Below are positions 11,813-30,604 of a stretch of DNA of 64,000 nucleotides, piece after piece (within the stretch, counting starts at the first letter, position 1; the number at the start of each line of letters is the position of its first letter). The notes beneath the pieces were generated by a model. The model was not told where the DNA came from. It made no database searches and saw nothing but the letters and a program-made list of their open reading frames with translations. The position numbers and the translations under genes are program-made. The stretch comes from Gammaproteobacteria bacterium (GTDB lineage: Bacteria; Pseudomonadota; Gammaproteobacteria; UBA4575), in contig JAJDYY010000002.1 in the NCBI GenBank assembly GCA_022824965.1, positions 58,929 to 122,928 on the forward strand, in the 5' to 3' direction.

Positions 11813-12979
11813 TTACATATTCGCTTTCCGAGCGACATGTCCTAGGTCCTGCAGTATCTTTTGCATGCGCGTACGGATCATCGCGCGCACCTGTGCCATG
11901 TTCTTGCCGCCCGCGAATACACTGCATACGGGTTCATATTGCTGAATCTCCTCTTCAGGATGAGGCCGGTCTGCCGTCCACAGGGGCCAGTCAAAGCGGG
12001 CCGGCACCTGCATCGGCTCCGAAGCGTAGACCAGTGCATGTGCACGAAGCGGGCGCTCGCCGGACATCGGGGCGAGTTTAGCATGTATGCAGGCATCCAT
12101 ATGTGCGCCGATCAGATGGCCCTGCCGAGTCTCGTACAGTTCGTAGGTAGCCGGGATGCGCGGGTTGATTTCAAGCACATGCACGCAGTCATTCGAGAGG
12201 ATGAAATCGATACTGTTCAGGCCTACCAGGTTGAATTCCCGGGTCAGGCAAACCGTGTAGTGAAGTGCCATGCTTTGCTGTTCCTGGGTGAGTTCGGCCC
12301 GGTTGACCGCGCCCTCGTACACATAAGGCCTGTCAGGCCCGCATGTCCTGTGCCACAGGGTGTTGAACCCCAGCACCTCAATGTTGGCACCATCGGCCAG
12401 AAATGTCAGGGAGAAACTCAAGCCCTCCATTTTTCTTTGCAGGTAGACTGACGGATCGTGGCCGGACTCACGCGTGCAGGGAGCAATCCCCCGACCCCCT
12501 ACACTCTTTGAATTTTTCTGCAACCACAGACCGGGGTCCCCCCGAACCTGCGAGAAGCAGACTTGCGGGTAACTGATCGAGTTTTTGTCCAGTGCCGAAA
12601 AAAATGTTTCCGGATCCTTGCAGCGGCGAAGAACTGTGCTCGAGTTGCCGATGACCCTGGGCGCCCCGATGTCATCCAGCAAACCGGGGGCAAACTCCAG
12701 TGCCGAGTCGTAGAGCAGGCCTTCCAGGGAATATTCGCCCTGAAGTTCGCGCACAGCTTCAGCTACTTCCATCTCCCGCAGACCCAGTAGAGTGCGCGGG
12801 ACTTTCCGGCTGACCGCCGATGCCGCACAGGTGTCTACATCGGCAAACCCGTCCACCACTGCAACAGGATAGCCCCTCGCCTTCAGGGCTTCTGCGATTG
12901 CCCGGCCTGATGTGGCTACAACCAGGTAAATACGCCTATCCCCGTTTGATCTCCTTGGCCATTCCAAATGCATGCTCAA
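11813..12979 (-). CDS. ATP-grasp protein (OrfY-like) of H4MPT cluster
   Basis: SGRAIA, D.F.D.D, GLNSIDF, EINPR motifs; located between mtdB and mch; start uncertain. Confidence 0.8.
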   Translation of the reverse strand: MSMHLEWPRRSNGDRRIYLVVATSGRAIAEALKARGYPVAVVDGFADVDTCAASAVSRKVPRTLLGLREMEVAEAVRELQGEYSLEGLLYDSALEFAPGLLDDIGAPRVIGNSSTVLRRCKDPETFFSALDKNSISYPQVCFSQVRGDPGLWLQKNSKSVGGRGIAPCTRESGHDPSVYLQRKMEGLSFSLTFLADGANIEVLGFNTLWHRTCGPDRPYVYEGAVNRAELTQEQQSMALHYTVCLTREFNLVGLNSIDFILSNDCVHVLEINPRIPATYELYETRQGHLIGAHMDACIHAKLAPMSGERPLRAHALVYASEPMQVPARFDWPLWTADRPHPEEEIQQYEPVCSVFAGGKNMAQVRAMIRTRMQKILQDLGHVARKANM

Positions 12980-13838
12980 AGTGCAAAAAGACCGGCTTGT
13001 CAGCAGCGCGCATTTCCTGCAGAAGTCTGTGCTGGGTCTGGTATTTCACATTGCCGATGACAAGCGCTCCGATTCCGACAGCGCCGCTGCTGGAGCCCTC
13101 GACCGCCTTGCAATCATCCATGGCGTCCAGTCCTGCAATCCCCGAAGGCGGCACTGCATTGACATCTGCAACGACCTTCAGTTCCGATGCGCTTTTGATG
13201 TGCTCCTCGGATATGACCTGTACGCCGGCCGCAACTGCCGCCAGGATGACGTCAGCACTTTTTGCGACCTCGCCGATCATGCTGTTGGCCTCACCCCGTA
13301 TGCCCGTTTCACCGTCACCGTACTCACGGTTGCACAACTCGGCCACTTGCTCCGACTTTTCTTTTTTACGTCCCATGATCTGCACATCTGCACCCGCTTT
13401 GGCGGCAAGAACGGCAGCCGCGGAACCTACCGGACCGGTTCCACCCATGATGACGACATGCTTGCCTTTAAGATCGGTATCAAACTTTTCTTTCAGTCCC
13501 TGCTCTACGCAGGCCATCATCCCGGCTGCTGTCGTGAAGGCACCGCTTGGGTCGGCAAAACAGGAAGTCTCAAAGGGAGGCACCATTGATGACTCGCAGA
13601 TTTTCAACATGCCCATCACGAGGTGCATGTCGCGTCCACCCAGGAATACTCCCGTGCGTTTGGCACCTGCAGGACCCCGGGAGAATATGGCATCCTGAAT
13701 CAGGGCTTCCACCTCGTCTGTCTCAACGTTGGTATAACCAACGGTATTGTCCCAGCCGGCATCCAGAGCCATATTGACATCGAACGGGCTCAAGTTCTTT
13801 GCCGGTGTAATCATGTGTAGGATGTAAGGTTTTTCCAT
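12936..13838 (-). CDS. mtdB: NAD(P)-dependent methylene-H4MPT dehydrogenase
   Basis: SPFDVNMALDAG, QDAIFSRG, DPSGAFTTAA, GGTGPVG, DVNAVPPSG, IGNVKY. Confidence 0.93.
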   Translation of the reverse strand: MEKPYILHMITPAKNLSPFDVNMALDAGWDNTVGYTNVETDEVEALIQDAIFSRGPAGAKRTGVFLGGRDMHLVMGMLKICESSMVPPFETSCFADPSGAFTTAAGMMACVEQGLKEKFDTDLKGKHVVIMGGTGPVGSAAAVLAAKAGADVQIMGRKKEKSEQVAELCNREYGDGETGIRGEANSMIGEVAKSADVILAAVAAGVQVISEEHIKSASELKVVADVNAVPPSGIAGLDAMDDCKAVEGSSSGAVGIGALVIGNVKYQTQHRLLQEMRAADKPVFLHFEHAFGMAKEIKRG

Positions 13839-13923
13839 TGTTTCCCTCTTGAAGTGGAGATGTTCTGATGATCGGGTCTACCGTCCGGCTGCCTGCCAAA
13901 ACGGAGAGTCTGTCCCTGGGGCT

Positions 13924-14931
13924 TCAAGACTCAGCGGCTTCGGAAATGGACGCTATGTCCTGCTGCAGGATAACGGCTCCAGAGTTTTTCCCCGACACTA
14001 TTCTAAATCGCAGGTCTTCATTCCCAGCAAACCGTGTTTGCAGGTCGCGCAACAGTGTATGTCCTTGTATTTCACTGCCAACAAAGGCAAATCCCAGTGG
14101 CCCCCATGAACTCTGCCCGACCCCTTCGATACCCAGAGACTCTATGTATTCAATAGCTTCACCGACGGAGCGACTAGTATAGCGCCCCCCCTGGGCCGAT
14201 GCGAAGTAATCACCAATGCATCTCTGGAGTCTGCTGACCCCTTGACTGAACATTTCCAGATTTTGCTCGGAAACTGCAGGCAGGATCTGCATCAGCACCA
14301 GATGACACAAATGCGCGGCAGATTCCGGTGAAAAAGCTGGCAAGGTCGAAAACAGCTCACTTTCATCGTTACCGTGCATCCCTTTTTGGGTCGAGTCAAT
14401 AATGAAAACCATGCGCCAGGCTGGCGGAAATACCAGCCGCGAGACCACGGGTGGAACCAGATCATGGGCACTCTTCCCAGCGTCCAGCAAGAACCCTCCC
14501 TGCTGGAACGCACCAATACCGACACCAGACCTTGCTCCTCGACCGAGAGTTTCGGCAATATCTGAAGGCGTGCAGTCGAGCGAATACAGCCTGGAAATTG
14601 CAGTGCCCACGGCCAGTGCCAGTTGTGTCCCAGAACCCAGCCCGGAATGTGCAGGGATTTGTTCCAGCACTTCAATTTGACACCCCCCGCTCAATTGCCT
14701 GGCTGCAAAAAACCTCTTTGCAACATCGTGCACACGGCCTGCAGGGTCACCCAGCACATCGATATGATCCTGGCGCCGGGCGATGATCCGCGTGGCAATG
14801 CCGTCAAGCGTTAATCCCAGACTCCCGAACCGCCTGCCCAGGCTGCCTTCAAGATCCAGAAAACCGAGGTGCAAGCGGGCCGGGGCTTCTACGTAGACGG
14901 GCAAGCTGTCCATATCCACAATTCTATTCAA
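13924..14931 (-). CDS. mptG: Beta-ribofuranosylaminobenzene 5'-phosphate synthase
   Basis: PARLHLG, H.GLGSGTQ, RGARSGVG, GQSSWGP GHMP-type motifs. Confidence 0.93.
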   Translation of the reverse strand: MNRIVDMDSLPVYVEAPARLHLGFLDLEGSLGRRFGSLGLTLDGIATRIIARRQDHIDVLGDPAGRVHDVAKRFFAARQLSGGCQIEVLEQIPAHSGLGSGTQLALAVGTAISRLYSLDCTPSDIAETLGRGARSGVGIGAFQQGGFLLDAGKSAHDLVPPVVSRLVFPPAWRMVFIIDSTQKGMHGNDESELFSTLPAFSPESAAHLCHLVLMQILPAVSEQNLEMFSQGVSRLQRCIGDYFASAQGGRYTSRSVGEAIEYIESLGIEGVGQSSWGPLGFAFVGSEIQGHTLLRDLQTRFAGNEDLRFRIVSGKNSGAVILQQDIASISEAAES

Positions 14932-16646: not shown

Positions 16647-16695
16647 GACGGTTCCGGGGAAATCTGCTGTACACCGATAACCGGCTATCGGTACC

Positions 16696-17082
16696 TCACT
16701 CCGGGCCACCCTGCCACATCATCTGGTAACCGATTTCATAGGTCTCCGTGGCATAGCCGCCCAAGGCCTCGAACTTTTCCCTGAAGACATCATCCGCGTG
16801 TGATTCCTCATGCTGCTCAAAGGATTCCCAGTAGGTGACAATGGCGACATGCTCACTGGTCTGTTCCTTCGAGGCAATGGAGCCTTCATCAGAGACAAAT
16901 CCTGCAAACTTGAATACCTGCCCGCCGAGAAAACCTCCCTTGTCGTCACCGTAGGTATTCTTGACCGTATTGCACATCTCTCCTACTGCAAGCTCTATAT
17001 CCTCTTCGGACACCCCTTTTTTCAGCTTGACAACGTTGTACATCATCACGCACCCGTACGGGACGCTCAGCGCATCAAACAT
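16696..17082 (-). CDS. 128-aa dimeric alpha/beta-barrel-like protein resembling the N-terminal domain of sulfur oxygenase reductase
   Basis: GAGGAG RBS before ATG; VGEMC, GFLGGQ, TYWESFEQHEESH, EIGY motifs; function inferred. Confidence 0.6.
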   Translation of the reverse strand: MFDALSVPYGCVMMYNVVKLKKGVSEEDIELAVGEMCNTVKNTYGDDKGGFLGGQVFKFAGFVSDEGSIASKEQTSEHVAIVTYWESFEQHEESHADDVFREKFEALGGYATETYEIGYQMMWQGGPE

Positions 17083-17234
17083 CGCAACTCCTCGGACTCG
17101 CAAGCCCCTTGTAGACACTGTGAATACATACTCTATTCGATTTTACGGACATTGGAAAACAGGTGCAGAAACCTCACCTGTGAGGCCTGTACCGGGTCTG
17201 CGGGCAGGCCAGGGGCTGTGGTCAGCCAGGCAGG

Positions 17235-18614
17235 TCAGCCGTTCGCGACCGCCAGCATCTCGGCCTGTCGGGTGAATTTCTCGCGTGGCTTGCCCTTGGG
17301 TTCTCCTGCGGCAACCTCGGCGGCATCAATTTTCTCCCACTGGATGAAATTGACATGGCGCACACCGTTGCGGCCCAGGATTTGATACAGACCCTCGCGA
17401 CCCGGTCTGTCTGCATCGAGTTGGCCGAGATCTGCCAGCAGGGACTCTACCGATTCCACCGCACAGGCACGGTTGGTGCCGATAATCCCGGAAGGTCCAC
17501 GCTTGATCCAGCCCGCCGTGTACAGTCCGGGCACCACGGCACCACCCTGTTCCGAGGTGATGCGCCCCGCATCGTTGGGAATGGTGCCCCAGCGGTCGTA
17601 AAAGGGGACTCCGGGAATGGGCACCCCGTTGTAGCCAATGCTGCGAAACAGGATCCCGCACGCGATCTCTGTTGTCTGTCCTGTGCCTTGCGCTGATTGC
17701 CCGAAGGGCTCTCCGGACAACTCATTGGCCTCGAATACAACCTTCTCCAGCCGTTCCCCGCCCTCCAGTCGCAGCGGGCTCTTTAAGAATGTTGCAATGC
17801 AGATTCGCGGCTTGCCCGTATCCTCGGAACCTGCGAACTGATGAAAAATCTCGACATTCTTCTTGTTGCCCCGGCCCGCCTTGGAATTGATTTCCTCTTC
17901 GCTTGCCGGGTTCAGTTCCAGTTCCACAGGATCAATATAGGGGCGGCAATTTTCAATCTCCAGGAATTCCTTGAGCTCCTTGGAGGCAAACTTTGCCTGT
18001 GCCGGCCCTCGCCGGCCCACCACGTAAATCGTTCGGACCCTGCTCTCTGCAAGTGCATCCAGGGCATGCTGCGCAATATCGGTATGCTTCAGTTCATCGA
18101 CGGACTTGGCCAGTATCCTGGCCACATCGGCTGCTACATTGCCCTGGCCGATCACGACGGCGGTCTCATGGGACAAGTCAAAAGTCCGGTCCCGGTAATC
18201 AGGATGCCCGTTGTACCAGCCAACAAATTCCGTGGCAGTGTGGCTTCCTGCCAGATCTTCTCCGGGTATGCCGAGCTGGCGATCCGTTTCCGCGCCACAG
18301 GTGTACATCACCGCATGATACGTCTGCTGCAGATCCTCCGCCGTGATGTCGACTCCGACCGTGACATTGCCGACAAAATTGAACTCGGGATTCTGGGCAA
18401 CTTTCTTGTAAACCTCGATGGCCTGCTTGAGCTTGGGATGATCAGGGGCAACCCCGTTGCGCACTAGGCCATAGGGGGCGGGAAGCCTTTCAATCAGGTC
18501 GATCTCAACATTCAGACCAGACTTGATCAGTGCTTCTGTGGCATAAAATCCGCTCGGACCGCTTCCTATAATGGCCACGCGAAGCGGGCTAGATTCATCG
18601 CCGAGACTGCTCAT
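17235..18614 (-). CDS. Ferredoxin-NADP+ reductase, FprA/adrenodoxin reductase type
   Basis: GSGPSG, GLVRNGVAPDH, WYNGHP, GQGNVAAD, GWIKRGPSG, PREK motifs. Confidence 0.92.
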   Translation of the reverse strand: MSSLGDESSPLRVAIIGSGPSGFYATEALIKSGLNVEIDLIERLPAPYGLVRNGVAPDHPKLKQAIEVYKKVAQNPEFNFVGNVTVGVDITAEDLQQTYHAVMYTCGAETDRQLGIPGEDLAGSHTATEFVGWYNGHPDYRDRTFDLSHETAVVIGQGNVAADVARILAKSVDELKHTDIAQHALDALAESRVRTIYVVGRRGPAQAKFASKELKEFLEIENCRPYIDPVELELNPASEEEINSKAGRGNKKNVEIFHQFAGSEDTGKPRICIATFLKSPLRLEGGERLEKVVFEANELSGEPFGQSAQGTGQTTEIACGILFRSIGYNGVPIPGVPFYDRWGTIPNDAGRITSEQGGAVVPGLYTAGWIKRGPSGIIGTNRACAVESVESLLADLGQLDADRPGREGLYQILGRNGVRHVNFIQWEKIDAAEVAAGEPKGKPREKFTRQAEMLAVANG

Positions 18615-18711
18615 GTGACGTTCCCGTACTCGATATCAATTTGGCTGCGAGCTTGTACAACAAGAAAGTGCAGAGCAGGACCGCCAGAATCATGCTTAAC
18701 CGTATCAGCAC

Positions 18712-19017
18712 CTAGAACCCTAGGTCTGCCTTGCGTTGCTCGGCTTCAGGCAAAGCTTCCATCGGTTCCTCAATTAATGGCAAGTCCGGTGCTTTTTCAG
18801 CATTGATCTCGATCCACTGCTCCTGTCCTTCAGGCAGGTCATCTTCCTCAAAGATTGCCTCTACGGGGCATTCCGGGATGCAGGCGCTGCAGTCAATGCA
18901 GACGTCCGGGTCGATATAAAGCATCTCATCATCATAATGAAAACAGGCCACCGGACACACGGCAACGCAGTCTGTAAAGCGACATCCTTTACAATTTTCT
19001 GTTACGACTGTAGTCAT
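18712..19017 (-). CDS. fdxA: FdxA-type (7Fe-like) ferredoxin
   Basis: CKGCRFTDCVAVCP and CIDCSACIPECP, acidic C-terminus as in Azotobacter FdI. Confidence 0.88.
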   Translation of the reverse strand: MTTVVTENCKGCRFTDCVAVCPVACFHYDDEMLYIDPDVCIDCSACIPECPVEAIFEEDDLPEGQEQWIEINAEKAPDLPLIEEPMEALPEAEQRKADLGF

Positions 19018-19091: not shown

Positions 19092-19913
19092 TCACTGGCC
19101 TGAAAAAAGCAGTATTTCTCCCCGATTGAGCTCCACCGCGTCTCCACTGTACCGGTCATACTTTCCATTGATATGCTTGTCCGTGATTTTTTCTCCAAAC
19201 CCATGTTCCTGCAACCTGATCAGATAGAGACGCAGGAACAATGGCTGATATCTACACGAATACTCGAAACTAGGCAATATCTGGGACTCTCCGAAACAGG
19301 CGACGGTGCCGCGCACCATGCCCGCACCCGTGCGCACACCCGTGTTGCCCATCACGACAATGGTCCCTGCTCGCATGCTTACCGCGGTAAAATCTCCAGC
19401 ATCCCCGCCGATCGCGATGAATCCACGGCGCATGGAGTTACCGACTTCATTCTTGACATTGCCATGGATGAAGATTTCACCACCCGTAATGCCCGTCGAC
19501 TGTCCCCTGAAGGCGCCGCCAACCATATGACCGGCATCACCAAACACTGTAATTCGCCCCCCGGACATCTCCGGCCCTACCCAGTCCGTAGCATCTCCCT
19601 TGACCAGGATCTCACCGCCGGACATCCCGATGCCTACATGCATGCCGACATTTCCCTCGATGATCACACGGCCTTCTGCCATGCCGGCACCAATCATTTT
19701 CACCCTGGAAAGGTCACCTTCGATGTGAATATCCGGAGTTCCCCTTCCCGTGACCTTGAAAAAATCACCGACCTTGGCCTTGACGTTTCCGTGCATCACC
19801 TGCAGGTGTTCGATTCCCAGTTCCGACAGCCCCGCAATCGAAGCAGGACTCAGGGTCTCCGCCTCCAATGGGACCTGTGGTTCCGTGTGCATATGCAGCA
19901 ATGTAGTACTCAT
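19092..19913 (-). CDS. fwdC: Formylmethanofuran dehydrogenase subunit C
   Basis: Repeated G..M..G.I.V.G beta-helix motifs; MRRG; operon context. Confidence 0.93.
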   Translation of the reverse strand: MSTTLLHMHTEPQVPLEAETLSPASIAGLSELGIEHLQVMHGNVKAKVGDFFKVTGRGTPDIHIEGDLSRVKMIGAGMAEGRVIIEGNVGMHVGIGMSGGEILVKGDATDWVGPEMSGGRITVFGDAGHMVGGAFRGQSTGITGGEIFIHGNVKNEVGNSMRRGFIAIGGDAGDFTAVSMRAGTIVVMGNTGVRTGAGMVRGTVACFGESQILPSFEYSCRYQPLFLRLYLIRLQEHGFGEKITDKHINGKYDRYSGDAVELNRGEILLFSGQ

Positions 19914-19950
19914 ACCAGACTACTTGTAATTTTATTTATAATCAATTGTT

Positions 19951-20847
19951 CTATTTAAGGATATCATGCAGGTGAAACTTGTATTTTCCAAGTTCTCCTC
20001 CGTAATTTCCCGCAGTAATGATCAGGGTTCCTCTTGACGCTGCCGCGTGGATGCCACGGCGCATGGCCTGCTTGACTACCTCCTCGTTCAAGCCGTCCAC
20101 GACAATCTCGTACCCGGCCGCCACGTTTTCCGGAAGCGTTTCCTGGCCTGAAATCGAACGCAAGGTGGGGCAGTACCTGTCATTGGTCGAGGCGATCATG
20201 GACTTGTAACGCGAACCGACCTTGCTGCCAGACCCCACGACTCCCTGGGGAAACGGCAGGAATACCCCCGCCACCTCACGCATGGCATTGCTCGCCGCGG
20301 TCGCTGCACGCAGTGCAATCCGCTGGCTTGTCCCCAGAATAATCAGGTTTCCGCCGCCCACGGCAGGCTGGATTCCAAAGGACTCCTCGACGATAAACTC
20401 ACCTTCCATGACCGGGATTCTCCACATTCGGCGGCCATCTATGAGTTTGCTGATCTGGTATCCATCTCCGAAAAAGCGCAGCTTCCCACCTACGGAAACC
20501 GTCTTCTCGGATTCCAGCCCATTGTATGCAGCCGTTGTGGGACAGGTCATGACACACTGGCCGATCCGGTCAATCAACTGACCTGCAATTGCCTTGCTGC
20601 TCATGGTGAACAGCAACACGCTGACGCCAGGGCGTCGGTCTGGAGTAGCCTCCGGAGGGACTTCACACTCGACCGCTGCTTCTAGCTTGCAGCGGATAAC
20701 CGAGGTGGCGAACCCGGTCATGGATGCCGCCGCGGCGCGCGCCCACTGCTTGGTGTCCGCCGTAATGACGACACGCGCACCCCACATCCCGAAAGCCTCC
20801 GCAAAGGTATCCGTGATTTCCGTTTTCTTGATGCGCATGACTTTCAT
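19951..20847 (-). CDS. ftr: Formylmethanofuran:H4MPT formyltransferase
   Basis: DTFAEAF, TGFATSVI, TPD.RPG, GQCVMTCPT, SGSKVGS, AGNYGG motifs. Confidence 0.96.
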   Translation of the reverse strand: MKVMRIKKTEITDTFAEAFGMWGARVVITADTKQWARAAAASMTGFATSVIRCKLEAAVECEVPPEATPDRRPGVSVLLFTMSSKAIAGQLIDRIGQCVMTCPTTAAYNGLESEKTVSVGGKLRFFGDGYQISKLIDGRRMWRIPVMEGEFIVEESFGIQPAVGGGNLIILGTSQRIALRAATAASNAMREVAGVFLPFPQGVVGSGSKVGSRYKSMIASTNDRYCPTLRSISGQETLPENVAAGYEIVVDGLNEEVVKQAMRRGIHAAASRGTLIITAGNYGGELGKYKFHLHDILK

Positions 20848-22490
20848 GACTTCGGATGGGTCGGGACCTCCTCGTGGTCATGAAGATAATCTTCACTGAT
20901 TGCATAGTTACCGAATTTGACCGAGTAGTAATCTTCAAAGAAAGGTTCAATTTCAGCTGCAATATCTTCGTTGTATCCCGGCTTGGAATGCAGAATCTTT
21001 CCTTTGTGGTCAGTCGCAAATTCGTGGTCCTTGATAACCATGGTGCCGTCCTTGATTACATACCGGGGGGCATTGAACATCTGCTCCCGGTCCTCGTCTT
21101 CCGTATAGATCGTGACATCCGCATCAGCGCCTATACCCAGATGCCCCTTGTTTTTCAGGCCCAAAGCCCTCGCCGGACCCGCTCTGGTAATGATCGCGAT
21201 CTCATTCAGCGTGTACTCGCGATCCAGTTCCGGAAGTACTGTCTGGGCGACTGCCTTCTGATTGACATGCTGTAACGCCTCTTTCCTGTAGGCACTGTCC
21301 ATCAATAGCTTGATCAATTTGGGATAGTTCATGAAGGAACCACCGTTGGGGTGGTCGGTAGACAGCAGGACACGCCACGGGTCTTTCGACATCAGAAACA
21401 ACTCCAGGCCCATGGCCCACTGCAAGGTGTGGGTGTAGATGCTCTCCTGATAACTGAAAGGAATGATGCCGCAACCACTTTCACACTCCGTGTCTGCGTT
21501 CACCCACTTGTCAAACTTGACGTTGCGCAGCATCCAGGCAAGCGGAGCGTCTGCTGTCATTGCCGTAGCCTTGCCAAACATGACCTGGCCCACGTCCGCC
21601 GTGATGTTTTCATGATCGTTGATGTAATTGATGATTTCCTGGGCACCGGATACCGGATTCTTGTTCAACTCCCCGCCAAAACTGTGGAACTGTACATGGG
21701 CTATGTGCGCACGCCGGCCCTGTGCTGCTTTCATGGTATCGAGGGTCGTGCTGATGTTGCCACTGTGTCCCAGGTTGTTGCAGTGTATGTGGGGTGGATG
21801 AGGCAGCCCCAGTTCATGCGCAGCCTCGATGAAGCTTTCCATCACGAACGCTGGCGTGATGTCATAGTGATCAATCTGCTCGTTTACATCCGTAATGTTG
21901 GCATTCTTTCGGCCTTTCCAGAGTTCATCGCTGCCTGTGTTCACCAGCTTGACCGTGTAGGCATGCACTGAATTCACCCACCACGCAATGGCTTCCTTGA
22001 ATTCCTTTTTCCGCCCTTCCTTCAGCAGTTTGTACAAAAATGCATTGTTGCCGAGCAGTACATAGAAACCCTTGTCTACCACCGGGGTGTCATCGAGCTC
22101 TTCGAGTACATGCCTTGCGGTAATGGGTGGAACTGCCGCTTCCATCGCGGTGGTGTAGCCCATGGTGGCGTAGCGGTAGCCTGTGGCAAAGGTCGAGGGT
22201 ACGATGCCACCGGTCCCGGAACGGGTCACCGCGGTTTTCGGGTGAACATCCAGGCGATGATCTTCTGGCATCAGCTTTCGTGCGAGGTTGACCTTGGGTC
22301 CGGCAATGTGGCAATGGATGTCAATTGCACCGGGCATCACGACCATGCCGCGTGCATCGATCCTGGAAGCGGATTTGGAAACGGATTCCACGATCTTTCC
22401 ATCTCTCACGCACAGGTCCTGGATACTGCCATCGACATTGTTGGCAGGATCGTATACACGCCCGTTCGAGATTTTTAATTCAGATGGCAT
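20844..22490 (-). CDS. fwdA: Formylmethanofuran dehydrogenase subunit A (amidohydrolase)
   Basis: DIHCHIAG, KLVN, HIHCNNLG, HVQFH, TDHPNGG, TRAGPA metal-binding motifs. Confidence 0.96.
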   Translation of the reverse strand: MPSELKISNGRVYDPANNVDGSIQDLCVRDGKIVESVSKSASRIDARGMVVMPGAIDIHCHIAGPKVNLARKLMPEDHRLDVHPKTAVTRSGTGGIVPSTFATGYRYATMGYTTAMEAAVPPITARHVLEELDDTPVVDKGFYVLLGNNAFLYKLLKEGRKKEFKEAIAWWVNSVHAYTVKLVNTGSDELWKGRKNANITDVNEQIDHYDITPAFVMESFIEAAHELGLPHPPHIHCNNLGHSGNISTTLDTMKAAQGRRAHIAHVQFHSFGGELNKNPVSGAQEIINYINDHENITADVGQVMFGKATAMTADAPLAWMLRNVKFDKWVNADTECESGCGIIPFSYQESIYTHTLQWAMGLELFLMSKDPWRVLLSTDHPNGGSFMNYPKLIKLLMDSAYRKEALQHVNQKAVAQTVLPELDREYTLNEIAIITRAGPARALGLKNKGHLGIGADADVTIYTEDEDREQMFNAPRYVIKDGTMVIKDHEFATDHKGKILHSKPGYNEDIAAEIEPFFEDYYSVKFGNYAISEDYLHDHEEVPTHPKS

Positions 22491-22554
22491 GTTCTGATTA
22501 TCCTTTGAACAAAACTATTGCTATCCGGCAAGACGGTTGTTGGAAGATGTTTTG

Positions 22555-23916
22555 TTAAGCCGCAACCCTGGCCTTGCTGCCTGAAAGGATTTTTTTCACG
22601 CGCTTGCGTATTCCCTCCAGGATTTCCTGGTCTGTCGGGAAGGGAGAATCAAACGCTGGTCGCAGGGATATTGGGACATCATCCATCCTGTACACCGTTC
22701 CGCCGGTATTGATCCCGTAGGTCGCCACTGCAAAACGCACCCTGGAAAGTCGGGTGGTATGGGTCTCTTTCACGTCCATGGAAATGACCGGTATTTTTTC
22801 CAGATGCTCAATGGCTTTCTTGGGGAAGTTGGATGCCGGGTCCGAGGCAACGATCATCGCAGCGTCAGCTTCACCCCTGGCAAGCACATCGCTGGTCGTA
22901 AATTCACCCGGGTTGAACCTCGGGTATCCCCGGTTGAAGTTGACGCCAAATGGATATCCCGTCTGCCATGCAACGACGTTGTCTGCACCGGTTACGTTGC
23001 CATGACCTCGAACGGGCTTGGCCACGAAGTGGGTAAATTCATTGAGATCGGATGCCAGGGAATAGACTGCACCGGAATTGAAGTGCCTTCCTCGGGTCAT
23101 GGTCAGGCCCATACCCATGAACAGCACCCCAAACTGGCAGTTCTTCATGCGCTGTACCAGGTCATCCAGTGTTTCCCGGGGCACACCGGTCTGCTCTTCA
23201 ATGTCCTCGCTGATTTTCCTTCCCTTGACGAGAGCACGCAACGCCCAGAGCAACTCAAAGTCCTTGCCGGGTTTGACCCGCACGAAGATGTCCGCCACGG
23301 GAGTACTGGGTGTCTTGCGCACATCGATCAGAACTACGGTGCGATCCTTTTTGCCGTTCGGGATGAACATGCCTTTCGGGGTCACAGCATAACGCGTGAA
23401 GTGACGGGGGTGGGATTCAGCCGGGTTGCCGCCCCAGTAAATCACCAGGTCGGCGCGGTTTTTGATCTCCCCCAGAGTGGCTGTACTTTCACCTACACCC
23501 TGAAAAGCCATGCCCGATGGACCGTGGCATACCGAAGTCGTAGTATCGATATTGCCGTTGATAGTATCCATGATATCCACTGCCACGCGCTGGGCTTCAC
23601 ACGGGCAGTCACTGAGCCCGTAGGTGATGGGAAATTTTGCGTCCACAAGAATCCGGGCGGCCTCGTCCAGGCCCTCATCCAAACTGGCTTCCTTGCCATC
23701 AATCAGCACTACCGGGCGCTCTTCCAGCGTGTGCTCGTAAAACCAGGCCCGTCCAAGCACACATGCCCTCTTGGCCTTGGTGATACGGTGTGCGTCCAGG
23801 TCGACAGTTAGCTCCATGTCATCACAGACACAACCGCAAAACGTGCAGGTCGCATCTTTTACAATCCTGATATTCTTGCTTTCCTTGGGCTTGGCTTTGG
23901 CTGCTGCTTCTGGCAT
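22555..23916 (-). CDS. fwdB: Formylmethanofuran dehydrogenase subunit B with intact Fe-S and Mo/W site motifs
   Basis: CTFCGCVCDD...RAC, SVCHGP, GEIKNRAD, HPRH, RGHGNVTG, WQTGYP, YRMD. Confidence 0.95.
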   Translation of the reverse strand: MPEAAAKAKPKESKNIRIVKDATCTFCGCVCDDMELTVDLDAHRITKAKRACVLGRAWFYEHTLEERPVVLIDGKEASLDEGLDEAARILVDAKFPITYGLSDCPCEAQRVAVDIMDTINGNIDTTTSVCHGPSGMAFQGVGESTATLGEIKNRADLVIYWGGNPAESHPRHFTRYAVTPKGMFIPNGKKDRTVVLIDVRKTPSTPVADIFVRVKPGKDFELLWALRALVKGRKISEDIEEQTGVPRETLDDLVQRMKNCQFGVLFMGMGLTMTRGRHFNSGAVYSLASDLNEFTHFVAKPVRGHGNVTGADNVVAWQTGYPFGVNFNRGYPRFNPGEFTTSDVLARGEADAAMIVASDPASNFPKKAIEHLEKIPVISMDVKETHTTRLSRVRFAVATYGINTGGTVYRMDDVPISLRPAFDSPFPTDQEILEGIRKRVKKILSGSKARVAA

Positions 23917-29221: not shown

Positions 29222-30604
29222 TTACTCTACCCGTTGAGACAGCATTGTGCCTTTTGAGTTCGGCTTTTGTCCATACAGTGAATAGGCACCGAATCGCATC
29301 TGATGCGGTCGGCCCAGATTCTCTGCATAGAAATCAATCGCGAACTTTTGCACAAGCTCTTTACCGTTCCACTCGAACAACTTGAAGAATTGCTCGTCCT
29401 GGTCACCGGTCTTGTCCCAGTTCCCCAGCAGGGATGACGTGAAGTACATGCGCTTTCCATCCCAGCTTTGCGAAGTCATGTTCACTTGTGAACCGATCAC
29501 ATGCTCGTAGGTCTGCTTGGGATTGAACGGATCAGAGATGTCAAAGTGTCTGGTTTTGCCATCCATGAAGGTTTGTACCCAAAGACCCTTGTCATCTGCA
29601 GTGATGGAAATGTCCACTGGCAACGGTACCTGAGAAGGATCACCGATAGCGCCAACAGATTGGGCATGCCACTCACCGGCATCGTCTTCGTGAATCAGCC
29701 AGATCTGCGAAGTCAGTGCGGTTGTGGTGAAGCAGTAGTTATTCTGGGAACCCCATGCACAGCGGATTTCCAAAGGTGAACCCGGGACTTCAAACACTTT
29801 CTTGGGCTTGCGGGTATGCAGGTCCCAGACAACCACGGTGTTGCCGAATCGCTTCATGGCCTCTGCGTCTCCAAGCATTTTGCCGAAGTCCATCATGTAG
29901 TTGGACCAGCCTGTGAAAGAGGAGGTAACCATGACGTTACGGCGTGGCAATACGCGGACATCATAACCGTATCCGTCTGCGATATTCCCGACTTTTACAG
30001 CACCACGCATGTCTTCATCCGTCGGCATCCAGTGCGCCGCTACAAACTCACCTTCGTTGGTGAACTCTGCAAGGCCTGTTCTGCCGCCATGATCCTTGTT
30101 GTTGGACAGTGCGCTGACCATGATTCTGCCCGGAAGAGCGTACATGGTGTGCGGACCAACCATACCACCGGTTTTCTCTACAAAATCGGTGATCACTTTA
30201 TGCAGGGAAGGCTTGCTTGGATTGGAATGGACATCAAAGATAAAGATCTTGTTGGTGTCCAAGCCACCTGCAAACAGATAACGGCGGTCATCTGTTAAAC
30301 CGGAATGATGTGCCTCATTACGACCACCTACAGAAAGTACATTGACGACTTTCCCGTAGTGTGGAGACTCTGGGTTCACCGAGACGGTGACCAGCTTGTC
30401 TTGACCATCACCAACACCTTCCTTACCTAGCGTCCAGATATACACATAATCTTCCTGACCAACAATCTTGGCCATATAGGGAGACATACAAGTCTCATCC
30501 GCAATGGCAGCAGACTGAAAGCCAACTACAGATGCCAGCAGGACACACAGGGAAGCGAGGCTGCCTTGTATCCACCTAGCGTGTAACTTTGACATTTTTT
30601 TCAT
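29222..30604 (-). CDS. mtoX: Methanethiol oxidase (selenium-binding protein family), periplasmic
   Basis: Signal peptide then DETCMSPY, NEAHH, GPHT, GYGYD, SSFTGW, SQSWDGKR.YFTSSLL.NWD; followed by SCO and MauG-like genes. Confidence 0.93.
   Translation of the reverse strand: MKKMSKLHARWIQGSLASLCVLLASVVGFQSAAIADETCMSPYMAKIVGQEDYVYIWTLGKEGVGDGQDKLVTVSVNPESPHYGKVVNVLSVGGRNEAHHSGLTDDRRYLFAGGLDTNKIFIFDVHSNPSKPSLHKVITDFVEKTGGMVGPHTMYALPGRIMVSALSNNKDHGGRTGLAEFTNEGEFVAAHWMPTDEDMRGAVKVGNIADGYGYDVRVLPRRNVMVTSSFTGWSNYMMDFGKMLGDAEAMKRFGNTVVVWDLHTRKPKKVFEVPGSPLEIRCAWGSQNNYCFTTTALTSQIWLIHEDDAGEWHAQSVGAIGDPSQVPLPVDISITADDKGLWVQTFMDGKTRHFDISDPFNPKQTYEHVIGSQVNMTSQSWDGKRMYFTSSLLGNWDKTGDQDEQFFKLFEWNGKELVQKFAIDFYAENLGRPHQMRFGAYSLYGQKPNSKGTMLSQRVE

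Follow-up and report, generated by a model that had tools for sequence, protein, structure and literature searches.

The 64,000-nucleotide stretch of gammaproteobacterial DNA analysed here (from contig JAJDYY010000002.1; hereafter the window) encodes a 128-aa protein, P0001, that is a real and uncharacterised single-domain relative of sulfur oxygenase reductase (SOR), for which a SOR-type chemistry is proposed. Its coding sequence, stop codon included, was read directly at 16696..17082 of the minus strand. SOR is a rare, self-compartmentalising enzyme, found mostly in thermoacidophiles. The initial annotation of this DNA had taken P0001 for a mini-SOR enzyme. Two parts of that proposal stand: profiles and conserved residues tie the protein, which has one domain, to the catalytic N-terminal half of SOR, and its family is linked to sulfur oxidisers. 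Structure searches, in which generic ABM proteins come first, speak partly against it, and the suggested link to MtoX is not supported as a general one. As to function, we see an even chance that P0001 is a homodimeric single-domain SOR relative that acts on sulfane sulfur in the cytoplasm of Dsr-type sulfur oxidisers, oxidising or disproportionating it with an iron held by two histidines and a glutamate and with Cys37 as the carrier of the substrate.

Conserved residues and profile matches

P0001 belongs to a family of two subgroups, its own (subgroup A) and a divergent sister group (subgroup B), whose merged alignment is referred to as A5. Read in order, the protein carries NVVKLK (residues 16-21), VGEMC (33-37), GFLGGQ (50-55), TYWESFEQHEESH (83-95) and EIGY (116-119). 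These are the motifs that the initial annotation had quoted for the 128-aa open reading frame (ORF), found here in the same order and on the minus strand; the SOR motifs of the Acidianus type with which it had compared them are legible in the alignment of a solved SOR chain. Among 34 aligned family sequences, Cys37, Phe51, Gly54, Thr83 and Trp85 are invariant across both subgroups, and 90% or more of the sequences have His91, Glu92, Ser94, His95, Glu116, Tyr119 and Trp123 (in A5, His91 in 94%, His95 in 91% and Glu116 in 97%). The aligned range contains 28 family columns conserved at 85% or above, and in 13 of these the residue is that of a conserved SOR column, N16, C37, G50, F51, T83, W85, H91, E92, H95, F100 and E116 being among them.

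The residues that matter most in SOR are included in this set. Family Cys37, His91, His95 and Glu116 align with SOR Cys31, His86, His90 and Glu114, and an alignment with a solved SOR chain maps Cys44, His98, His102 and Glu126 of the bacterial enzymes to the same archaeal positions. An equivalent of Glu87 and the N-x-V, GF-x-G and T-x-W motifs are also present, in register. According to a published study, His86, His90 and Glu114 are the iron ligands of SOR; the H86A, H90A, E114A and C31A mutants are inactive; and C101A and C104A lower activity about 10-fold, so that the CxxC cysteines are not essential (PMC7398979). The Cys101-x-x-Cys104 motif is absent from all aligned family sequences. The residues that are indispensable to SOR are thus retained in the family, and the dispensable CxxC is missing. 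The claim that a catalytic Cys and a 2-His-1-carboxylate set are conserved and the CxxC absent is borne out, and by this alignment His91, His95 and Glu116 are candidate SOR-type iron ligands. On the minus strand of the window, the Cys37 codon (invariant in 34/34, and aligned with the essential SOR Cys31) lies at 16972..16974; the His91-Glu92-Glu93-Ser94-His95 codons, aligned with the iron ligands His86 and His90, at 16798..16812; and the Glu116 codon, 97% conserved in A5 and aligned with the ligand Glu114 through subgroup B, at 16735..16737.

By sequence profile, the N-terminal half of SOR is the nearest relative of the family, in a relation that is weak but reciprocal. When A5 was searched as a profile against 177,635 distinct PDB sequences, SORs took the first eight places (6m35_A at E 6.5e-4, the rest at E 0.02-0.073), with noise beyond. 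A second weak stretch fell on the SOR C-terminal half, and no ABM or IsdG chain appeared at E<=10. In the other direction, SOR models match 13 of the 34 members at E<=1, the lowest E-value being 5.8e-6 with NCBIfam and 9.5e-5 with Pfam. P0001 itself is matched in register by the curated SOR model NF047630, residues 71-98 lying on profile positions 66-93. The same model, searched in 75 genomes of one order, matched 20 of them at E<=1e-3. One match was a true SOR broken by a contig end, so that a true SOR is found in just 1 of these 75 genomes; 20 were open frames of 149-178 aa covering SOR positions 5-110. Nine of these 20 open frames and one ORF matched in another search were inspected, and all ten belong to subgroup B. 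None of 14 control genomes gave a match at E<=1e-3.

Profile-profile comparison was done against full-length bacterial SORs, of which 13 of the 120 listed were aligned (A3). With hhalign, subgroup B (A4) aligned over 107 columns at P 3.7e-4 (probability 36%), subgroup A (A1) over 42 columns at P 4.8e-4 (32%) and the merged family over 79 columns at P 6.8e-4 (27%). Two control tests gave real scores of 32.7 and 31.7, compared with column-shuffled means of 14.3 and 13.8 (standard deviation 2.8; maxima 23.6 and 24.0) and with 15.9 and 19.3 for reversed profiles. The resemblance to SOR is beyond chance: in each test, none of the 75 shuffles scored as high as the real profiles. The fetched bacterial SORs derive mostly from metagenome assemblies; their alignment is matched at E 6.6e-179 by 9rdn_A, a solved 313-aa SOR, so a solved structure exists for that bacterial clade.

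Occurrence in sulfur oxidisers and phages

The family is large, unnamed and very strongly conserved. P0001 matches 1228 cluster representatives at E<=1e-3; the best 120 of these are 68-97% identical to it and none of the 120 carries a Pfam domain. The family profile, run against 1.84 billion representatives, yields 242 matching clusters at E<=1e-3; many are fragments, and the best 150 include no known family. At least 580 confirmed family stretches occur in species-representative genomes, nearly all from uncultured Gammaproteobacteria, with record titles naming Thiotrichales, Thioalkalispiraceae, Ectothiorhodospiraceae, Thiohalobacteraceae and Arenicellales. Proteins of subgroup B are about 150 aa long, have a Lys/Ala-rich tail and share 31-38% identity with P0001. 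This subgroup is larger than subgroup A, with 4377 clusters at E<=1e-10, the best 120 being 84-95% identical to the subgroup B query; the lineages that carry these close relatives bear the source labels Thioalkalivibrio, Thiobacillus, Thiohalobacter and Chromatiales.

Databases at present call members of the family hypothetical, 'ligand-binding protein SH3', 'ABM family' or 'HmoA', and because of these labels a possible role is invisible in annotations. The NCBI name for subgroup B, 'ligand-binding protein SH3', fits neither the fold nor the relatives. A protein atlas search returned only the family itself and DUF6974, DUF6614 and ABM clusters. No description of a single-domain SOR, of a small 'SOR-like' protein or of such a phage gene was found in the literature searched, which was mostly without subscription journals and supplementary files. 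Fused or tandem forms were considered and rejected: three longer proteins were read among the best 150 representatives, and two of them, P0176 and P0223, seem to be chimeras produced by frameshifts. The third, P0214, has 2044 aa made up of 'TIDWGDG' repeat units and was matched at E 1.3e-16 over 10 stretches; by eye it is unrelated and was set aside as a profile false positive. The unrestricted representative search found no genuine fused two-domain form; no search aimed at longer forms was made.

The family is tied to sulfur oxidisers. In 401 genomes drawn evenly from the class to which the window belongs, it occurs in 73 and dsrA, called at E<=1e-80, in 124; dsrA is present in 65 of the 73 genomes with the family and in 59 of the 328 without it. 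The 65 genomes with both span 45 taxonomic families, and for the subgroup of the window itself dsrA is found in 20 of 21 genomes. The source genome (1.74 Mb, 97.6% complete) conforms to this pattern, with one family copy and dsrAB; no true SOR was found in it. Near-identical DNA is present in sponge metagenome runs.

The initial annotation had further suggested that P0001 may process sulfur derived from MtoX. The source genome does have a SBP56/MtoX-like gene (window 29291-30499), located about 12 kb away, and an operon link with P0001 was rejected on account of that distance. In the 401-genome sample, SBP56 occurs in 17 of 73 genomes with the family and in 28 of 327 without (counts that include two genomes flagged as unpublished, G374 and G219, both SBP56-positive and family-negative); among dsrA-positive genomes the figures are 16 of 65 and 6 of 59. 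The link to MtoX is therefore weak and not general. Two genomes of 1.1 Mb, both 99% complete (G265 and G425), keep the family gene together with dsrA and a SBP56 gene; that the family is kept in genomes of this size points to an important function.

The family is also encoded by 40 IMG/VR contigs, which have a GC content of 30-42% and small, mostly co-directional ORFs. The neighbour clusters common to these contigs match a T4-type gp32 single-strand DNA-binding protein, gp59 helicase loader, exonuclease, baseplate tail tube cap and tail protein; judged by these genes, the carriers are T4-like phages. All 36 readable phage copies keep N16, C37, F51, T83, W85, H91, E92, H95, E116, Y119 and W123. 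No family match was found in GenBank phage records.

Fold, predicted homodimer and possible chemistry

The AlphaFold model of P0001 has a mean predicted local distance difference test score (pLDDT) of 75 and shows a beta-alpha-beta-beta-alpha-beta domain, which is the fold class of one half of SOR (PF07682, NF047630; PDB 2cb2, 6m35, 6qpa, 7x9w and 9rdn). Both P0001 and SOR are cytoplasmic proteins of sulfur oxidisers. The differences are nonetheless substantial: P0001 has 128 aa and one domain, whereas SOR has about 310 aa in two fused ferredoxin-like halves; P0001 is devoid of Cys101/Cys104, of the chimney segment (SOR residues 125-152) and of the C-terminal helix; and the family is found in mesophilic Dsr-type sulfur oxidisers and phages. 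Since length, architecture, score against the cut-off and CxxC all fail to agree, the family is not a member of SOR as defined.

Co-folding predicts that P0001 forms a homodimer. The score was 0.86, compared with 0.01 for the best of three controls. Of 30 proteins whose solved structures are one-chain pairs, 20 attain the mark, as does 1 of 23 whose solved structures are single chains. Agreement between runs is at least 88% of contacts, and the partner pLDDT is at least 84. In the predicted dimer the two copies meet through their beta-sheets, beta4 of one pairing with beta2 of the other, and residues 13, 80, 82 and 119 touch the partner; by strand parity, N16, T83, W85 and E116 would be turned to the side of the helices, towards C37, H91 and H95. 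Iron ions placed in the prediction were unscored and have no bearing on the metal site. Because solved structures include many ABM homodimers, the high score may be due to likeness only. An obligatory heterodimer of subgroups A and B, mimicking the two SOR halves, was rejected: the source genome has one copy, and the two subgroups were seen together in just 4 of 73 genomes.

These features suggest how the protein might work. P0001 is a cytoplasmic protein of one ABM/ferredoxin-like domain, remotely homologous to the catalytic N-terminal half of SOR. Two copies would pair via their beta-sheets into an alpha+beta barrel resembling the two fused halves of a single SOR subunit, and each copy of the dimer would have its own active site. 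There, His91, His95 and Glu116 would hold a mononuclear non-haem iron and Cys37 would carry the substrate as a persulfide or polysulfide; in SOR the cysteine lies 9.5-13 A from the iron. In Dsr-type sulfur oxidisers, the enzyme would oxidise or disproportionate cytoplasmic sulfane sulfur, the likeliest course being an O2-dependent reaction that converts bound sulfane sulfur to sulfite. The substrate would probably be soluble or carrier-bound persulfides, not bulk elemental sulfur. The 24-subunit hollow sphere with chimneys is a feature of SOR; lacking the second half, the chimney segment and the CxxC, P0001 could not build it in the same way and is not expected to form one by the same contacts. 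A functional analogue is provided by persulfide dioxygenase (ETHE1/PDO), in which a mononuclear non-haem iron held by two histidines and a carboxylate converts persulfide sulfur to sulfite with O2. The proposed chemistry is alike; the metallo-beta-lactamase fold of PDO is unrelated and there is no sequence relation.

A number of observations weigh against a SOR-type enzyme. NF047630 scores P0001 at only 11.2 bits (cut-off 400; E 0.14), the Pfam SOR model PF07682 does not match it at E<=10, and the hhalign probabilities against SOR are just 27-36%. No solved relative was found in the PDB for P0001 as a single protein or for the subgroup A profile alone, which recovered no SOR; the merged profile of both subgroups was needed to reach solved relatives. 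One or both histidines are missing from three of the 34 members, all divergent (P0218, P0177 and P0154). Neither 75 subgroup A loci nor 21 subgroup B loci (those that could be mapped out of 30, the gene having been missed by ORF picking in nine) have a sulfur gene as a conserved neighbour, and gene context is uninformative as to function. Eight of the 73 family-bearing genomes have no detected dsrA, three of these being at least 99% complete, and the raw odds ratio of 37 between family and dsrA overstates the link because related genomes are not independent. Other families match as often as SOR or more so: IsdG-type haem oxygenase models match 16 of the 34 members (best E 1e-4) and the Pfam af470-like family 17 (best E 1.4e-3), compared with 13 for SOR. 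For P0001 alone, an IsdG-type model (21.3 bits, E 2.8e-4; cut-off 119) and PF13826 (E 0.0057) both do better than SOR. All SOR, haem oxygenase and af470-like matches lie below the curated cut-offs, the SOR scores far below. At the level of fold, generic ABM proteins outrank SOR, which enters the VIA-align list at rank 39 (6qpa_A, Z 8.1, root-mean-square deviation 4.0 A over 116 residues), on the SOR C-terminal half.

The last of these points belong to another explanation, that P0001 is an ordinary ABM protein which resembles SOR at no more than superfamily level. It would then be a cofactor-independent monooxygenase or an IsdG/HmoA-type binder or degrader of tetrapyrroles, perhaps serving the sirohaem of DsrAB, a service that would explain the co-occurrence with dsrA. 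Foldseek gave 68 matches at E<=0.001, those listed being ABM and related ferredoxin-like-fold proteins, with IsdG and IsdI showing the top identities (21-23%). VIA-align placed 9lmm_B first (Z 11.4, root-mean-square deviation 2.2 A over 96 residues), followed by SnoaB, At3g17210 and IsdG/IsdI. Since ABM proteins top the fold searches, P0001 is an ABM protein by fold alone; the initial annotation had itself named best matches to unrelated ABM-family proteins as an outcome that would count against it, and at this level generic ABM proteins are indeed the best structural matches. The ABM proteins of the dimeric alpha+beta barrel type (PF03992; SnoaB 3kg0, ActVA-Orf6 1lq9, IsdG/IsdI 1xbw/2zdp) share with P0001 both the fold and the predicted sheet-mediated homodimer, and one source labels a family member 'heme-degrading monooxygenase HmoA'.

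The sequence evidence argues the other way. The haem oxygenase matches are themselves weak and far below their cut-offs (21.3 bits against 119 as given above, and 15.5 against 200 for a second IsdG-type model of the NF009838-NF009840 set). The Pfam ABM model PF03992 does not match P0001; five of the 34 members match it at E<=1 (best 0.001), none reaching the threshold. In the PDB the family profile finds SOR and not ABM or IsdG chains. The haem oxygenase match joins residues 53-105 to profile positions 25-77, stretches of equal length, so that, judged from the match ends, the haem-ligating histidine (His77 in IsdG, His76 in IsdI) would fall on Phe104 or Glu105; the haem-ligand position may thus be Phe or Glu in P0001. 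The conserved residues coincide instead with the essential set of SOR, and to our knowledge a conserved Cys/His/His/Glu set is not a feature of ABM families. An ordinary ABM protein is, on this evidence, a quite unlikely explanation.

A second alternative retains the SOR ancestry and the site and changes the chemistry to one independent of O2. Cys37 would serve as a persulfide carrier in a sulfurtransferase-like relay to Dsr, or the site would bring about a metal-dependent release or rearrangement of sulfane sulfur. The Dsr pathway depends on small cytoplasmic persulfide carriers (TusA, DsrE and DsrC), which counts in favour of a relay, as does the strong link to dsrA. Cys37 is, moreover, the only catalytic-type residue that is strictly invariant (34/34), the three divergent members having lost histidines, and many of the hosts probably live at low oxygen. 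A pure carrier, however, needs none of His91, Glu92, His95 and Glu116, which are kept at 91-97% in the family and in 36/36 phage copies, and no persulfide-relay gene is a conserved neighbour. We regard this alternative as unlikely.

Beyond the proposed sulfane-sulfur enzyme lies a wider and more tentative reading, to which we give less than an even chance. P0001 would represent a single-domain sulfur oxygenase of ancestral type that has two iron sites as a homodimer. It would be a nearly universal part of cytoplasmic sulfur oxidation of the Dsr type, important enough to be retained in symbiont-sized 1.1 Mb genomes and to serve T4-like phages as an auxiliary gene of sulfur metabolism, and SOR would be its duplicated, fused and caged descendant. 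A one-domain relative with exactly the essential residues of SOR, present in 73 of 401 genomes of the class, would broaden the picture of SOR beyond that of a rare enzyme. It would show how duplication and fusion of an ABM fold gave rise to SOR, would bring into the textbook Dsr pathway of sulfur oxidation an enzyme or sulfur-handling protein that has not been studied, and would introduce a new kind of gene among the sulfur genes carried by phages. The family is a good candidate for a missing enzyme of sulfur metabolism, and the small, soluble protein makes the idea directly testable.

The gene and its surroundings

P0001 is encoded by the sole ORF across 16696-17082 of the minus strand, with its ATG at 17082-17080 and TGA at 16698-16696. 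A Shine-Dalgarno-like GAGGAG, read directly at 17088..17093 of the same strand, lies 5 nt upstream of the ATG. The ORF listing offers a longer GTG start at 17118, which is taken as unused because all 29 of 29 aligned relatives begin with MF at the N-terminus. A promoter and terminator scan of the locus found nothing. Directly 3' of the stop codon, at window 16673-16692 on the minus strand, is a 7-bp inverted repeat, ACCGATA...TATCGGT, with a 6-nt loop. It lies 27 nt ahead of the likely cysS ATG (16646), has no T-run after it and is absent from the output of the terminator scan.

The neighbours of P0001 are genes for a ferredoxin and a pyridine-nucleotide oxidoreductase and cysS, amid genes of the tetrahydromethanopterin (H4MPT) pathway. 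The arrangement with cysS and the ferredoxin reductase is confined to the clade of the window itself, where about 10 loci have it. Elsewhere in subgroup A (75 loci) the neighbours are housekeeping genes that depend on the lineage (NYN, BON-LysM, Rsd/AlgQ and a Na/H exchanger). In 10 of 30 subgroup B loci a protein of about 458 aa, by eye DegP/HtrA protease-like, is encoded nearby, mostly just upstream; sulfur genes are absent from the subgroup B loci mapped.

A stand-alone gene with such variable neighbours would also suit a small non-catalytic metal binder, i.e. an iron or zinc sensor, a chaperone or a stress protein, and Cys, His, His and Glu could make up a structural or sensing metal site. 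A sensor is not expected to track the Dsr pathway so closely, nor to be a conserved auxiliary gene of T4-like phages, and we consider this explanation improbable.

The neighbouring pyridine-nucleotide oxidoreductase, which is ferredoxin-NADP reductase-like, and the ferredoxin, of the 2x[4Fe-4S] type, lie directly upstream of P0001 on the same strand, at window 17235-19017. At window 11813-14931 and 19092-23916 lie genes for formylmethanofuran dehydrogenase-like subunits, a formyltransferase and a methylene-H4MPT dehydrogenase, and GHMP-kinase and ATP-grasp biosynthesis genes. Taken together, the H4MPT one-carbon genes, the SBP56/MtoX-like gene (in the stretch 29222-30604) and dsrAB suggest that the source organism uses methylated sulfur compounds and further oxidises both the formaldehyde and the sulfide.

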